Source of the DNA: Escherichia phage rolling
Strand: one strand, 5' to 3'
Sequence record: NC_073056.1
Length of the DNA stretch: 46,017 nucleotides
Shown: piece by piece, positions 12,598 through 32,730 of the stretch
Layout of the letters: the number at the start of each line of letters is the position of its first letter
Numbering within the stretch: the first letter of the stretch is position 1
Made by a program: the position numbers and the translations under genes
Notes under the pieces: model-generated
The model's input: only the letters and a program-made list of their open reading frames with translations
What the model was told of the DNA's origin: nothing
Database searches by the model: none

Positions 12598-12628
12598 CGT
12601 TGGTCATTAACCAATAGGAGACAGAACA

Positions 12629-12958
12629 ATGCATATCAACGACGCAATCGAAATGTTAACCAATGCTGTTAGCGGTGAGACAAGCCGGTCCTGGGCTTAT
12701 ACCGATGCCGTGGGTGAGGTGCTATTTGAAATCGAACGTCTGCGCAGTGTCGAAAAAGAATTGCGCGCCAAGCTGGAATTGCTAAACGGTACGGCAGCAA
12801 GCAAGTTGCAAAAGCACAACGAAGAAATGGAAGAATACAAAAAGCAGGTTATCCGTTTACGCGACGAGGGCAAGTCCTGGGCGATGATTGCCGAGTTGAC
12901 AGGAATTAATCAGAGCACCGTACGCTCATGGGTACGCAATAATAAAACTTCTAAATAA
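12629..12958 (+). CDS. HTH DNA-binding regulator (109 aa)
   Basis: C-terminal helix-turn-helix SWAMIAELTGINQSTVRSWVRN; ATG with AGGAG RBS. Confidence 0.75.
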   Translation: MHINDAIEMLTNAVSGETSRSWAYTDAVGEVLFEIERLRSVEKELRAKLELLNGTAASKLQKHNEEMEEYKKQVIRLRDEGKSWAMIAELTGINQSTVRSWVRNNKTSK

Positions 12959-12968
12959 GGCAACGGCA

Positions 12969-15230
12969 ATGAGAGATTATTTAATTGAGTTCGGCACCGT
13001 CGGCGGTAAATACGGCAAACGTGTTAAAAACCATTCTATGACTGAAGCCGAGTTTATGGAATACGTCGCTGATACCGTTGAATTATCCAGCGTAACCATT
13101 ACCGGCGACGAGACTAAGAAAGAATACGACGAGGTGAAAGGCAAGGCGGAAGGCATTGTCGCCACCACTAAAGGCCGGGGACGTCGTGCTACGGAAGTGG
13201 GTGTCCGTTCCGTACTGTTCTATGACCTGGACCGCACTGACAACCGTACCCTCGGTCGCGTTAAGCGTGCCTTTCGCAAATCCGGCTTATCCCACGTCTA
13301 CTACTCCACTACAGGCGACCGCCACCCGCTGAAGGGCGGCACACGTTGCGCCCGTTTCCTGGTGCTCACTGATAAACCGGTTGATGTTTCCGATTTAGGC
13401 CGTGCGCAGTTCGCACTATTGAAACACCTGGGGCTGGAAGACGTGCCGTTTGATGATTGCACAAAAAACGTTAACAACCTGCAATTCCTCCCCCATTCCG
13501 GATCTACCGTGTCGTGTCATCCTGGCACGCCAGCCCGTGTCCGTCGTCTGCTTCGCCTGGCTGACAAGCTGGGAGTGGAGAAAGAGGAAGTACGCCGCGA
13601 ACTGACCCAGGGCGACGATGGCGTGGCGGACGGGATTCTGGATTGGTGCTTCCAGGCTGGCTTTGAACCACTGTCATCCGGTCGCGGTTATGAAGTGCCG
13701 TGCCCGAACGAGCACCTGCATAGCGGCGGCGGGTCGACGGCTATCATGGTTAAGGATGGCGAGATCCGTTTCAAGTGTATGCACACCGGAAACGAGTGCT
13801 GTTCCGAACTGAACAGACACCAGCACCTGGCGCTACGTCTTATAGGGATCCCGGACCACCTGAACGTCGAACCGCACAACATGTCACGTAAGCAAATCGC
13901 CGCCATTCTCCCTGGACTGGACGACGAGGAAGTCGAATCGTGCTATGAACATATTGTTGATGCAGTTGGCGACGGCGAAGAATACGGCGTGTGCACCGAT
14001 GCGGATCTGGATAACGAGCCGGTCGCACTCTTCAGTAAGCACGACCCGATCATAGAAGGCCTGGTAAACTTCAAATCGACCTGGTACATGGCTGGCGAGT
14101 CGAACATCGGTAAATCGTTCTACGTGCTGGGGCAAATGGGCGCGGTTGCCGCGGGGATTCCGTTCGGTGGCGCGAAGGTAGTCCAGTCTCATTGCTTCTA
14201 TTTCGACGCGGAAGGTGGTGAAGCCTCCAACCAGCGTAAAGAAGCATTGCAGATTAAATACGAGCACGACCTGGACAAGCTGCACATTATCGATCTGCAA
14301 TCACGCGGCTGGGATATCACCAGCAAATCCGGCTTGCGTGAAGTTATCAGCTTCATCAACCGCACCGCTAACGGCGAGCCGGTTGGCCTGGTGGCGTTCG
14401 ACTCACTCAACCAGACTGTTGCGCTGCGGTCCGCCGATGCAAAACCGTTCGACGAGAATAACGCCAGCGATATGGGTGAAGTGGTCAAAGCGCTGAAGGC
14501 CATTGCGGAAAATACAGGCGGCAGTGCGGGCGTCATCCACCACCCAGCGAAGGGTGCAAACGGCAGCAGATCTCCCCGTGGGTCCGGCGCGCTTCATGGT
14601 GCTGTTGATTCTGCGTTCTTCCTGGAACAGCCGGATGACAACCAGCCAGGCCAACTCAACCTGTATCACGAAAAATCCCGTAACGGGATTAAGCAAGCGC
14701 CGCGTGGCTTCGTCCTGCTCAAATGCAAGGTGAAGGTGGATCTCCGTAAGTCCGAGGCGTTCGAAGCCCACCAGTCCACCAGCACCGGTCCGGACTTCGG
14801 CGATGTGGTTGCCGGTTGGGACGTCAAGCCAATTGCATCCACGCCACGCGACGAGACTCTCTACCTCGTACCGGTCGCCCTGGCACCGTTCGCTATCGAA
14901 CAGGCGAAGGCGGCTGGCAAGGCAGCAGTTAAGGAAGAGAACACCGCCGGTCCGCGCAACGAAAAAGAGAAAGTGCTTTATGCGGCGCTGGAAAAACTGA
15001 TGGAAGATAACCCGGACCATACCGGATTCAGTAAATCGGCAATTGTCCGCCAGGCAGGGCTGGCAAAAGGTGGCACTTCGACGAAGGCAATCGACGATAT
15101 GGTGGAGCGCGGAGTGATAGGTTTTTACACCGATCCGCACACCGGGGCCATCTATGGGTCGTCTAATTTGGTCATAAAAACGAATATACCCATCACGCTT
15201 TCGGCGACCGATGACGACCTGAAAGATTAA
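12969..15230 (+). CDS. Primase-helicase replication initiator (primase-polymerase N-domain, RecA-like ATPase, C-terminal winged-helix-like region)
   Basis: Walker A GESNIGKS, RecA-like AFDSLNQ / VIHHPAKG segments, C-terminal HTH-like tail. Confidence 0.85.
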   Translation: MRDYLIEFGTVGGKYGKRVKNHSMTEAEFMEYVADTVELSSVTITGDETKKEYDEVKGKAEGIVATTKGRGRRATEVGVRSVLFYDLDRTDNRTLGRVKRAFRKSGLSHVYYSTTGDRHPLKGGTRCARFLVLTDKPVDVSDLGRAQFALLKHLGLEDVPFDDCTKNVNNLQFLPHSGSTVSCHPGTPARVRRLLRLADKLGVEKEEVRRELTQGDDGVADGILDWCFQAGFEPLSSGRGYEVPCPNEHLHSGGGSTAIMVKDGEIRFKCMHTGNECCSELNRHQHLALRLIGIPDHLNVEPHNMSRKQIAAILPGLDDEEVESCYEHIVDAVGDGEEYGVCTDADLDNEPVALFSKHDPIIEGLVNFKSTWYMAGESNIGKSFYVLGQMGAVAAGIPFGGAKVVQSHCFYFDAEGGEASNQRKEALQIKYEHDLDKLHIIDLQSRGWDITSKSGLREVISFINRTANGEPVGLVAFDSLNQTVALRSADAKPFDENNASDMGEVVKALKAIAENTGGSAGVIHHPAKGANGSRSPRGSGALHGAVDSAFFLEQPDDNQPGQLNLYHEKSRNGIKQAPRGFVLLKCKVKVDLRKSEAFEAHQSTSTGPDFGDVVAGWDVKPIASTPRDETLYLVPVALAPFAIEQAKAAGKAAVKEENTAGPRNEKEKVLYAALEKLMEDNPDHTGFSKSAIVRQAGLAKGGTSTKAIDDMVERGVIGFYTDPHTGAIYGSSNLVIKTNIPITLSATDDDLKD

Positions 15231-15339
15231 TTTGTGCGCGTATTGGTTGCCGATATGGGAATTCCCATATCGCTAAAAGATTAAATTTTGCGCGCATTGG
15301 TTGCCATTTTGGGTGTTTTTAGCTGGTCGCATTGGTTGC
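15222..15339 (+). repeat. Tandem duplication of primase 3' end with three ATTGGTTGCC motifs and a 22-bp perfect palindrome
   Basis: AAAGATTAA..GCGCG.ATTGGTTGCC at 15222-15251 and 15276-15305 (~27/30 identical); palindrome CGATATGGGAATTCCCATATCG at 15251-15272; third ATTGGTTGC at 15331-15339. Confidence 0.7.
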
Positions 15340-15371
15340 CGTGTAGTGTAAATATAGTGAATAGTTATGCA

Positions 15372-15547
15372 GTTTTATTGCATAAAGTAAGCGGGACAAA
15401 AAGCGGGACAAACATGGGGCGGGACAAAGCGGGACAGCACCCCCTGTCCCGCCCGGATGGCGCGGCTTGCGGAGGAGCGGGACAGGCGGGACAAACCTCA
15501 GTCTTTCAGACTAGACGGGGTCAGTTGGCCCCCCTCGTCTGAGACTG
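15372..15547 (+). repeat. Iteron array 1: GCGGGACA x7 with TGCATAA motifs and conserved ~50-bp imperfect hairpin
   Basis: GCGGGACA at 15391, 15403, 15419, 15429, 15477, 15487 plus inverted TGTCCCGC at 15445; hairpin 15499-15547; AT-rich stretch just upstream. Confidence 0.85.
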
Positions 15548-15701
15548 CATAAAATCCGGGATTGCATAACGCACGGCAGCATGATGTGAATTGCGGTCGT
15601 CGATGAACTAGGCAACCAATGCGTGTTGAATAATGGAGAGTGAAAAATGCAGTTTGCAGTTGCAGCAGATAGCGATCAACTTTTTCATACGCATGATTAA
15701 T

Positions 15702-15742
15702 ATTGGTTGCATTCAGCCTGGCACCCTGCTAGATTGGTTGCA
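15702..15742 (+). promoter_or_regulatory. Promoter-like element with two ATTGGTTGCA motifs upstream of gene 15764
   Basis: ATTGGTTGC 15702-15710 and ATTGGTTGCA 15733-15742; TTGCAT-N17-TAGATT reads as a sigma70-like promoter. Confidence 0.45.
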
Positions 15743-15763
15743 CACCAACAAGAGGATTGAACA

Positions 15764-16090
15764 ATGAGAGCATTAATCTGGAATTACTCACTGGCAATGG
15801 CGAAGGCACAAGAAGCGGCGGAGTTCGCCGGTGAGGGGGCGGAAGCGGTAGAAAGACTATCGGCAGCGTGGTCCGTTGTTCGCGTCACGCAGCAGGCCAT
15901 CGCCTGTATGCTGGAGCGCCGCTTCGACACGATGGAAGAGATCCAGCCGCTGGCTTCTGCCATCCAGGACTACGCGCTTGCATTCGCCCGTGAGCGCCTG
16001 GCCTATCGCCTCGGTATTGGCGAGAAGGCATTGGCAAACGTCGCCCGGATTAAAGCCCAGCGCGAACTATTCGCCAAGCTTGCGAAATAA
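15764..16090 (+). CDS. Hypothetical protein (108 aa)
   Basis: ORF track; ATG with AGAGGA RBS. Confidence 0.7.
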   Translation: MRALIWNYSLAMAKAQEAAEFAGEGAEAVERLSAAWSVVRVTQQAIACMLERRFDTMEEIQPLASAIQDYALAFARERLAYRLGIGEKALANVARIKAQRELFAKLAK

Positions 16091-16099
16091 GGGGTCAAA

Positions 16100-16369
16100 A
16101 TGAGCCGTAGTCGAGCTAAACAGCTTTCTTGGCACATTCCCCTGCATTGCATACGAATATGGGCTAAGAACGCGATTGAGGGCGATTCCGTGTACTGGTG
16201 CTATCGCGATGACGTGAAGCCACTAACGCAGACTCGCTACTTGCACCAGTTCGCAGCACAACATGATTTCTATGTGCGGACTTCCTTGCAACCAATGGGA
16301 ATACGTATTACATTACGCCGGAAGCCCGCCGTTGAGCGGGTAGGCAAACACTGGAGACTGAGCAAATGA
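16100..16369 (+). CDS. Hypothetical protein (89 aa)
   Basis: ORF track; ATG with AAGGGG RBS. Confidence 0.65.
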   Translation: MSRSRAKQLSWHIPLHCIRIWAKNAIEGDSVYWCYRDDVKPLTQTRYLHQFAAQHDFYVRTSLQPMGIRITLRRKPAVERVGKHWRLSK

Positions 16370-32332: not shown

Positions 32333-32336
32333 TGAA

Positions 32337-32661
32337 GCGGGACGGATCGGGACGTCCCGATTTGTCCCGTTTTGTCCCGCCCCCAGTAAAACTGCATACC
32401 TACCCACTTTCATTGCATAAACTCAAAGCGGGACAAGCGGGACGCCCCGATCCGTCCCGCCCATTAAATGTGCATACCTATTCAGATCTCGTGCATAAAA
32501 CAAACGGGACAAAAAGCGGGACAAACATGGGGCGGGACAAAGCGGGACAGCACCCCGTCCCCGTCAGTGCTGCCGCGGGTTTTAGCCGATCGGGACAGGC
32601 GGGACAAAGCCCAGTCTTTCAGACTAGACGGGGGTCAGTTGGCCCCCCTCGTCTGAGACTG
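32337..32661 (+). repeat. Iteron array 2: GCGGGACA-type repeats (>=14 copies) with TGCATAA motifs and the same conserved hairpin
   Basis: Copies at 32337, 32347, 32428, 32437, 32516, 32532, 32542, 32599 and inverted copies; palindrome CGGGACGTCCCG 32348-32359; ~52-bp and ~65-bp blocks near-identical to array 1; hairpin 32612-32661. Confidence 0.85.
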
Positions 32662-32730
32662 AATAAGGTTTGTTTGAAATTCGCTGATACAATGTCAATC
32701 GGCAACTGCATAAAAAAAGGGGACTGCATA

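Follow-up and report, generated by a model that had tools for sequence, protein, structure and literature searches.

The stretch of DNA analyzed in this work (46,017 nucleotides (nt), hereafter the window) is the complete or near-complete genome of Escherichia phage rolling [NC_073056.1], a Dhillonvirus, i.e. an Escherichia coli siphophage similar to SO-1 and HK578. We have examined a short repeat block that follows the primase-helicase gene and contains a perfect palindrome of 22 base pairs (bp), CGATATGGGAATTCCCATATCG, whose letters are found elsewhere inside genes of the KilA-N/BstA type. When 3 kb around the block were compared with databases, 160 phage records matched with roughly 80-94% identity, almost all of them Escherichia/Shigella Dhillonviruses.

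The primase-helicase gene (12969-15230, + strand) is an open reading frame (ORF) of 753 amino acids (aa), the product of which contains the Pfam domain AAA_25 (E 7e-19) and matches PHROG 3228 'replicative helicase-primase' over its full length; relatives with a solved structure, sought by sequence, were not found. The last three sense codons and the stop codon of this gene belong to the first copy of a direct repeat. The order at the 3′ end of the gene is a 32-bp direct repeat, the palindrome, the same 32-bp repeat again and a third CGCATTGGTTGCC box. Copy 1, CTGAAAGATTAATTTGTGCGCGTATTGGTTGC (15219-15250, + strand), comprises the codons for LKD, the stop codon, a spacer and box 1, and copy 2, CTAAAAGATTAAATTTTGCGCGCATTGGTTGC (15273-15304, + strand), includes box 2; the two copies are identical in 28 of 32 positions and each abuts the palindrome (15251-15272) directly, one on either side. 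The palindrome begins 21 nt past the stop codon, and translation of the block in the primase frame reads ...DDLKD-stop, FVRVLVA, DMGIPIS, LKD-stop. The first-pass annotation of this DNA had described a tandem duplication of the primase 3′ end (15222-15251 versus 15276-15305, 27 of 30 positions identical), a third motif, and a perfect 22-bp palindrome with an EcoRI site between the repeat copies. All of these were found at the positions reported, the repeat being really 32 nt long and the third motif, ATTGGTTGC, occupying 15331-15339.

CGATATGGGAATTCCCATATCG is the longest perfect palindrome in the window. The earlier judgment that it is unlikely by chance holds, since a perfect palindrome of 22 nt was reached in one of 200 shuffles of the window and the calculated expectation (46017 x 4^-11) is 0.011. 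The proposed search for other copies in the genome, carried through the whole window with up to three mismatches allowed, returned neither a second copy nor a half-site. The GAATTC at the centre of the palindrome (15259-15264) is the sole EcoRI site of the window, where 9.3 would be expected. A dispersed repeat of the repetitive extragenic palindrome (REP) or miniature inverted-repeat transposable element type was rejected, as the window contains one copy and the flanking direct repeats are essentially confined to Dhillonviruses; a transposon-like insertion with target-site duplication was rejected as well, the flanking direct repeats being present only in Dhillonviruses and one or two other contexts.

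The 54-bp unit among Dhillonviruses

The palindrome and repeat copy 2 together make up a 54-bp variable unit, the copy number of which was read between the primase stop codon and the first iteron in about 27 relatives. SO-1, 101114BS4, Bas83, TheodorHerzl (Bas14) and others have no unit and no palindrome, the stop codon, the box and CATTTTGAG running directly on. One unit is present in the window phage, PaulFeyerabend and most other relatives read, two in PNS1, three in SM_S24 and five in Teewinot, and the LM40P1 assemblies contain partial or rearranged versions. The unit boundaries stay in register across relatives with 0, 1, 2, 3 and 5 copies, which identifies a variable-number tandem repeat. 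Both the presence or absence of the unit and its copy number are interleaved over the clustering of primase 3′ ends, and therefore gains or losses have been repeated. These comparisons give good support to the view that the phage can dispense with the unit, which expands or disappears when the 32-nt repeats recombine or slip.

Where the unit is retained its palindrome varies. The centres GGGGATTCCC, GGGAATCCCC and GGGGATCCCC were found in addition to arm changes, some of them mirrored and some breaking the symmetry; the EcoRI site is lost in relatives with these centre variants or without the unit. In CEC_Kaz_2018, the most diverged unit-bearing lineage, the symmetry is kept via two double changes (G-C to A-T and A-T to G-C). 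Conservation in relatives had been put forward as a check on the palindrome as a protein-binding site, and within the genus the palindrome is conserved only in part: the unit is present in 85 of 156 Dhillonvirus records (presence being defined as coverage of a 75-nt spanning query at 80% or more, and the remaining records matching a single primase end and box copy only), in 0 to 5 copies and in part in decayed versions. Judged by this distribution the palindrome is not a core element of the origin, because about 45% of the sequenced Dhillonviruses, including SO-1, lack it.

The palindrome family in KilA-N genes

The first match outside the genus, 24 nt long and exact, lay inside a gene of the temperate E. 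coli phage vB_EcoS-613R10 (613R10; ON470590, ORF 12608-13381) annotated as 'KilA-N domain-containing protein'. The exact 22-mer is present in at least 120 IMG/VR viral contigs and, in a scan of one genome per bacterial species, in 63 stretches with GC contents between 0.29 and 0.70 (calculated chance expectation about 0.03). The carriers include Nostocales, Saprospiraceae and other Bacteroidota, Chloroflexota, Bacillota, Saccharibacteria, spirochaetes (Brachyspira, GC 0.29) and Alpha-, Beta- and Gammaproteobacteria (Azospirillum, GC 0.70). Searches of the literature on the motif or the palindrome returned nothing relevant.

Among the matches listed, the exact 22-mer occurs in 89 distinct flanking contexts. 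Forty of these are part of complete KilA-N domains, always between '...FLxELS' and 'ELVQxxKGG...QGTWVHP'; four retain only one KilA-N half, broken at the palindrome; and 45 show no KilA-N similarity and are referred to as orphans. The window copy is one of the orphans: it lies downstream of the stop codon of the primase gene, and the 450 nt to its left and right show no KilA-N similarity. No KilA-N or BstA gene was found in the window, where tblastn with 43 KilA-N ORFs matched the palindrome alone, and therefore any partner would come from a resident prophage. It is well supported by these matches that the window palindrome is an exact orphan copy of a cross-phylum family tied to KilA-N genes, mostly those of the prophage BstA type.

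In lambdoid prophages the orphan copy is found 47-66 nt from hok/sok loci (L033, L036 and L043, with Rfam matches to sok). Upstream of hokD, in the nin region of an E. coli O157:H7 prophage, it occupies 2631-2652 of the contig L212, and 667 of 5426 complete E. coli genomes contain this copy. Among E. coli prophages the hok-side flanks cease to be homologous at query positions 86-91, exactly at the palindrome, indicating a mosaic junction; an empty-site allele of the copy upstream of hokD was sought in E. coli and not found, the homology ending at the palindrome instead. Other orphans occupy an intergenic site in Hafnia phage Pocitis76, positions just after terminators or stop codons, and linkers of unrelated ORFs, and orphan copies of two other subtypes occur in other phages and prophages too. 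The orphan of a Magnetococcales metagenome-assembled genome (MAG; L173, position 1818) lies within a long ORF and has 22-nt direct repeats on both sides, while in L082 (13856-13907) a second, variant palindrome, ACGGGAATTCCCGT, is located 14 nt downstream of the orphan copy.

Inside KilA-N genes the 22-mer belongs to a family of palindromes centred on GGGAATTCCC, in which GG(G)AATT(C)CC with mirrored arms coincides with the G-I-P codons of the domain. The arms of the window copy (GATAT) are those of the subtype of E. coli prophages, with exactly the same sequence. Arms of the types GAAAC, GATAT, GATATC, GCTAC, GTGAC, GAGGT and TCCAT were found mirrored among homologues, and the variants CCGAAACGGGAATTCCCGTTTCGG, CCGATATCGGAATTCCGATATCGG, TCCGATATCGGTATACCGATATCGGA, CCGCTACGGGAATTCCCGTAGCGG, CGTGACGGGAATTCCCGTCACG, CGAGGTCGGAATTCCGACCTCG and GGTCCATGGGAATTCCCATGGACC differ in the encoded amino acids on both sides of the centre. 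The CGAAACGGGAATTCCCGTTTCG subtype occupies this position of the domain in KilA-N genes of contigs labeled as giant-virus MAGs (L380 and L382), and in a 244-kb viral contig (L385) two palindromes with the centre GGGAATTCCC lie 13 nt from each other.

The comparisons indicate that the palindrome in KilA-N genes is conserved as DNA. A cause at the protein level, i.e. conservation of the DMGIPIS motif, was rejected on the grounds of reading frame, synonymous codons and arm changes that alter amino acids. In KilA-N genes of Saprospiraceae/Aureispira (L149, L154, L166, L186, L190 and L208) the identical 22-mer lies at the homologous position in another frame and is read as LLEE-RYGNSHIA-P..., versus the usual ELS-xDMGIPIS-E..., both types being recognized as Pfam KilA-N. 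The synonymous-codon control was done on an unbiased sample of 63 distinct metagenome genes picked only via the downstream motif [QH]GTW[VG]HPx[VIL]A. At the GIP position 17 of the 63 genes had a perfect palindrome of 22 nt or more, compared with 0.12% of synonymous-codon shuffles, and 37 of the 63 had one of 12 nt or more, compared with 6.9% of the shuffles. GGA ATT CCC is almost fixed, whereas the synonymous sites of QGTWVHP vary freely.

When positions 3-12 from the centre were compared in 66 distinct genes, 560 of the 660 cells were Watson-Crick symmetric (85%), and the asymmetric cells (12 G-T, 22 A-C and 66 others) showed no wobble preference. This pattern favours the duplex as the relevant form, as either a dimer-binding site or the product of templated arm correction; a hairpin in the sense-strand RNA is not favoured for the family because there is no excess of G-U. 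The covariation of arms between homologues is as cognate specificity predicts, and templated arm correction would give it too. The original proposal of a dimer-binding site next to the origin holds in part: the symmetric site is still a good reading in the light of the Watson-Crick arms without wobble, but the palindrome is not a conserved component of the origin.

The carrier proteins can be related to BstA. PHROG 6287 ('BstA abortive infection system, replication inhibitor') is matched along the whole length of those of 613R10 and Proteus phage vB_BPM-V3, with E values of about 1e-85 to 1e-89, and the C-terminal halves of both match the PADLOC model of BstA (E about 1e-21). The similarity of the 613R10 protein to BstA of the Salmonella prophage BTP1 is confined to the C-terminal domain (32% over 142 aa, E 3e-16), and the gene of the vB_BPM-V3 homologue lies directly downstream of cI, like bstA in BTP1. 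The BstA C-terminal domain is encoded by 58 of 61 genes of the unbiased sample and, among the matches listed, by 31 of the 43 KilA-N ORFs containing the exact 22-mer.

Boxes, iterons and the candidate origin

The repeat block adjoins the best candidate for the replication origin, as the first-pass annotation had suggested. GCGGGACA iterons number 17 in the window against 1.9 expected, and there are two clusters, one of seven copies (15391-15493, one of them inverted) and one of six (32373-32606). The first cluster and a GC-rich hairpin are contained in an iteron module (15379-15552, + strand) that is shared with a second locus, 15379-15552 and 32492-32666 being 87.5% identical over 176 nt. In the GenBank record of SO-1 the two blocks are annotated as repeat 'region B', located after the primase gene, and 'region A'. 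On the strength of these repeats the module 15379-15552 is a candidate for the origin core; the repeat/palindrome block lies outside it. It is well supported by the alignments that the block, composed of the CGCATTGGTTGCC box array and one 54-bp repeat unit, forms the left and variable edge of 'region B' (15231-15763), which is non-coding. The palindrome as an iteron or initiator repeat of the origin was rejected, being a single copy and absent from many records of the genus, such as those of SO-1, TheodorHerzl and Bas83. The cumulative GC skew has its minimum at about 12 kb and is uninformative as an origin locator because the minimum coincides with a switch in gene orientation; searches of the literature on Dhillonvirus origins found nothing relevant. 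'Region A' (32333-32730) separates the tail chaperone genes from the tape-measure gene; besides its GCGGGACA/CGGGAC iterons it contains recurring TGCATAA motifs and, at 32346-32361, a perfect palindrome of 16 bp, ATCGGGACGTCCCGAT. In several GenBank records 'hypothetical proteins' are annotated through the box/iteron block (15288-15542, + strand, in the window; 439-795 in L007 and 385-687 in L002). These ORFs are probably not genes, because the calls differ between records and run through repeats.

The boxes of the block are part of a genome-wide element. The 9-nt core ATTGGTTGC is present in 16 exact copies in the window (1340, 2889, 2906, 5848, 12427, 15242, 15296, 15331, 15612, 15702, 15733, 16288, 18732, 26741, 26755 and 42870), whereas 0.31 would be expected from base composition, and SO-1 has 14 copies at orthologous positions. 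Most copies precede a start codon by 30-70 nt and point in the same direction as the gene that follows; they are often paired at 12-31 nt, and the second box often overlaps the spacer. At five sites, 1340(+), 2906(-), 5848(-), 15702(+) and 42870(-), a -10-like hexamer stands at 19 nt, the geometry being TTGCnn, 17 nt and TATAGT, TATAGA, TAGATT, TATCTT or AATACT, with the core overlapping the -35 of a sigma-70-like promoter. The two promoter-type boxes at 15702-15741 (+ strand), upstream of a gene starting at 15764, have TTGCAT at 15707-15712, a 17-nt spacer and TAGATT at 15730-15735. From their number and placement, the ATTGGTTGC box is probably a genus-wide promoter-associated operator or -35 element of Dhillonviruses; a description of the motif was not found in the searchable literature.

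Boxes 1-3 share a longer 13-mer, CG(C/T)ATTGGTTGCC. Box 1, CGTATTGGTTGCC, occupies 15239-15251, box 2, CGCATTGGTTGCC, 15293-15305, and box 3, also CGCATTGGTTGCC, 15328-15340 (all on the + strand); a copy of box 3 was found in every relative examined. An inverted box 4 (15611-15623, - strand; GGCAACCAATGCG on the + strand), conserved in SO-1, brackets the iteron module together with boxes 1-3. The cores at 15242, 15296 and 15331 have no correctly placed -10, TCGCTA, TGGTCG and GAATAG standing there, and a consensus scan of 14900-16100 found no sigma-70 promoter; a promoter of this type at the palindrome or the three boxes was rejected on both counts. An intrinsic terminator at either was rejected too, since the terminator scan reported none at 15251-15290 and the palindrome stem is followed by CUAAAAGAUUAAAU without a U-run. 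Directly upstream of the primase-helicase gene, 12629-12958 (+ strand) encodes a 109-aa protein with a C-terminal helix-turn-helix (HTH) that matches HTH_23 and Sigma70_r4_2. It is annotated as 'transposase' in PHROGs and SO-1 and is a candidate for binding to the ATTGGTTGC box or to the iterons.

An aba-like role and its rivals

BstA localizes to replicating phage DNA and stops its replication (Owen et al. 2021, PMC8585504). A short DNA element in the bstA locus, aba, protects the BstA-encoding prophage; it works as DNA and only with its own BstA, and must sit on replicating or high-copy DNA (PMC8585504). Both the determinant of phage sensitivity to BstA and the mechanism of aba are stated there to be unknown, and a palindrome or inverted repeat is not mentioned (PMC8585504).

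The reading that we put forward, tentatively and at somewhat less than an even chance, is that the window palindrome is an orphan cognate site for KilA-N/BstA-type proteins that works like aba. As double-stranded DNA it would be the putative cognate site of KilA-N-type BstA-like proteins. On the replicating phage genome, where it lies beside the origin and in some phages is multiplied, it would titrate the BstA-like proteins of prophages or engage them, and the phage would thereby escape abortive infection of the KilA-N/BstA type, as aba shields BstA-encoding prophages. The price would be the only EcoRI site of the genome. It is possible, although rather less likely, that the same holds on a wider scale: KilA-N genes of many phyla and of giant-virus MAGs would carry their own site, the arms of which co-evolve with the protein in an aba-like manner, and the orphans would have been pirated by Dhillonviruses and some other prophages against the defence.

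Several observations weigh against an aba-like role. The sole mapped aba, that of BTP1, is a non-palindromic element of 63 bp that lies at the start of bstA and is bounded by direct repeats of CCCGCC (PMC8585504), the N-terminal domain of BTP1 BstA is non-canonical and lacks the GIP and GTW motifs, and BTP1 bstA has no palindrome. No similarity was found between the BTP1 aba sequence and 15219-15304. Identity of the palindrome with the published aba was rejected because the latter differs in sequence and site, and for the same reasons the analogy is one of principle, not of homology. Among the matches listed, the BstA C-terminal domain is missing from 12 of the 43 palindrome-bearing KilA-N ORFs, among them those of the Nostoc and Saprospiraceae types. 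The palindrome-bearing KilA-N/BstA allele of E. coli is present in only 137 of 5426 complete E. coli genomes, and would therefore exert selection only now and then. In Dhillonviruses the conservation of the palindrome does not exceed that of its flanks, and several lineages are asymmetric. If the protein blocks any DNA that it binds, a site beside the origin could even raise sensitivity. Searches for literature joining BstA and Dhillonviruses returned nothing relevant.

The main rival is a neutral relic, i.e. an illegitimate recombination or template-switch scar from a prophage KilA-N gene, without function in the phage, with the arms kept symmetric by quasi-palindrome correction and the unit gained and lost by slippage; we regard it as possible but rather unlikely. 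The four contexts with one KilA-N half broken at the palindrome speak for it, as do the hok-side homology in E. coli prophages, which ends exactly at the palindrome without an empty-site allele, and the absence or decay of copies within the genus. Templated correction predicts exact Watson-Crick mirroring without wobble, as was observed. The single EcoRI site (1 versus 9.3 expected) suggests a recent arrival not yet purged, and the centres GGGGATTCCC, GGGAATCCCC and GGGGATCCCC destroy GAATTC; a lone site in a depleted genome fits equally a cost tolerated for a benefit. A scar is harder to reconcile with exact capture, which needs junctions at both edges and was repeated in unrelated contexts (the 45 orphans of 89 among the matches listed) and in other subtypes. 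The three and five copies of SM_S24 and Teewinot and the 54% retention in the genus despite the restriction-site cost hint at a benefit, and in CEC_Kaz_2018 the symmetry was preserved by the two double changes.

The binders suggested in the first-pass annotation were the phage's own HTH proteins. An accessory operator for a dimeric DNA-binding protein of the phage, tuning origin firing or the transcription of region B, would account for a perfect palindrome directly by the iteron cluster and between ATTGGTTGCC boxes, and candidates exist in the HTH protein encoded at 12629-12958 and a 380-aa homologue of SO-1 gp58 ('putative transcriptional regulator'). Such proteins are unlikely partners, given that the identical palindrome family sits in KilA-N/BstA-type genes, absent from the window, and the operator is improbable on further grounds: the genome has no second copy or half-site at up to three mismatches, the relatives without the palindrome (about 45%) keep the same proteins and iterons, and unrelated phages and bacteria without Dhillonvirus proteins contain the identical sequence. 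Slightly less probable still is a single-strand hairpin, acting either as an RNA 3′ stabilizer or pause for the primase-helicase message or as a single-stranded DNA (ssDNA) signal for priming or loading at the origin. The short distance to the stop codon and the folding suit such a role, the palindrome being predicted to form a hairpin of -8.2 kcal/mol (z -3.5) as ssDNA and a 9-bp stem within an RNA context that folds at -43.1 kcal/mol (z -2.7); orphan copies are often located behind a terminator or a stop codon, and some Dhillonvirus changes are G-U compatible. Opposed to it are the lack of a U-run, the negative terminator scan, the absence of an Rfam match at the block (a sub-threshold miRNA match within the iterons was the only one), the 12 G-T versus 22 A-C cells in the family and the optional nature of the element in the genus. 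Chance, or an assembly or cloning artefact such as a linker, may be practically dismissed. The central EcoRI site and perfect symmetry resemble a synthetic linker and one shuffle in 200 reached this length, but the unit has natural variants and a range of copy numbers in dozens of phages sequenced independently in many laboratories, and the 22-mer is present in isolates and metagenomes of many phyla.

Known systems offer partial parallels. The palindrome in KilA-N genes resembles aba in being a short DNA element in the coding region of a prophage defence gene whose products are of the BstA family by PHROG, PADLOC and C-terminal homology, and covarying arms would supply the 'cognate' specificity reported for aba; it differs in that the window phage is virulent and has no bstA gene, its copy being an orphan. 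Binding sites inside the gene of their binder are represented by the iterons of the lambda ori in gene O and by parS in spo0J/parB, and in lambdoid O genes the embedded sites co-vary with the specificity of the protein. These too are symmetric sites conserved as DNA within the coding sequence of their own DNA-binding protein, but they serve replication or partition with several sites per locus, while KilA-N genes have a single site for which binding is presumed. Quasi-palindromes are hotspots of template switching (the Ripley model and E. coli hotspots), a mutational process that accounts for wobble-free mirroring of arms and coordinated double changes and leaves unexplained the presence of the same 22-mer in many unrelated contexts.

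For the surroundings of the palindrome the closest likeness is with phage P4, in which two iteron clusters, ori and crr, are bound by the primase-helicase alpha protein. Both phages combine a large primase-helicase gene with two dispersed clusters of one short iteron; the iteron sequences differ, and in the searches run no similarity to P4 alpha was found (Pfam AAA_25 only, and no solved-structure match). REP elements, bacterial interspersed mosaic elements and the Rickettsia palindromic elements are dispersed palindromic repeats, some of them in frame within genes. The 22-mer is likewise a short palindrome found after genes and in frame in ORFs, being free of stop codons in all frames and, with 2 further nt, equal to 8 codons; unlike them it is present in one or few copies per genome and across phyla, with no transposase and no general target-site duplication.

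Whatever its function, the palindrome should not be read as a part of the Dhillonvirus origin, and the 54-bp unit decides whether a Dhillonvirus has any EcoRI site. A DNA palindrome inside KilA-N/BstA-type genes is apparently new to description. As a 22-bp symmetric site with natural arm variants it provides a concrete handle on two questions about BstA left open by Owen et al. (2021), the basis of phage sensitivity and the action of aba. If the orphans do act as decoys, they would constitute a DNA-only anti-defence element in lytic coliphages that are common in phage collections, and a counter-example to the notion that the cognate specificity of aba bars its exploitation by other phages.

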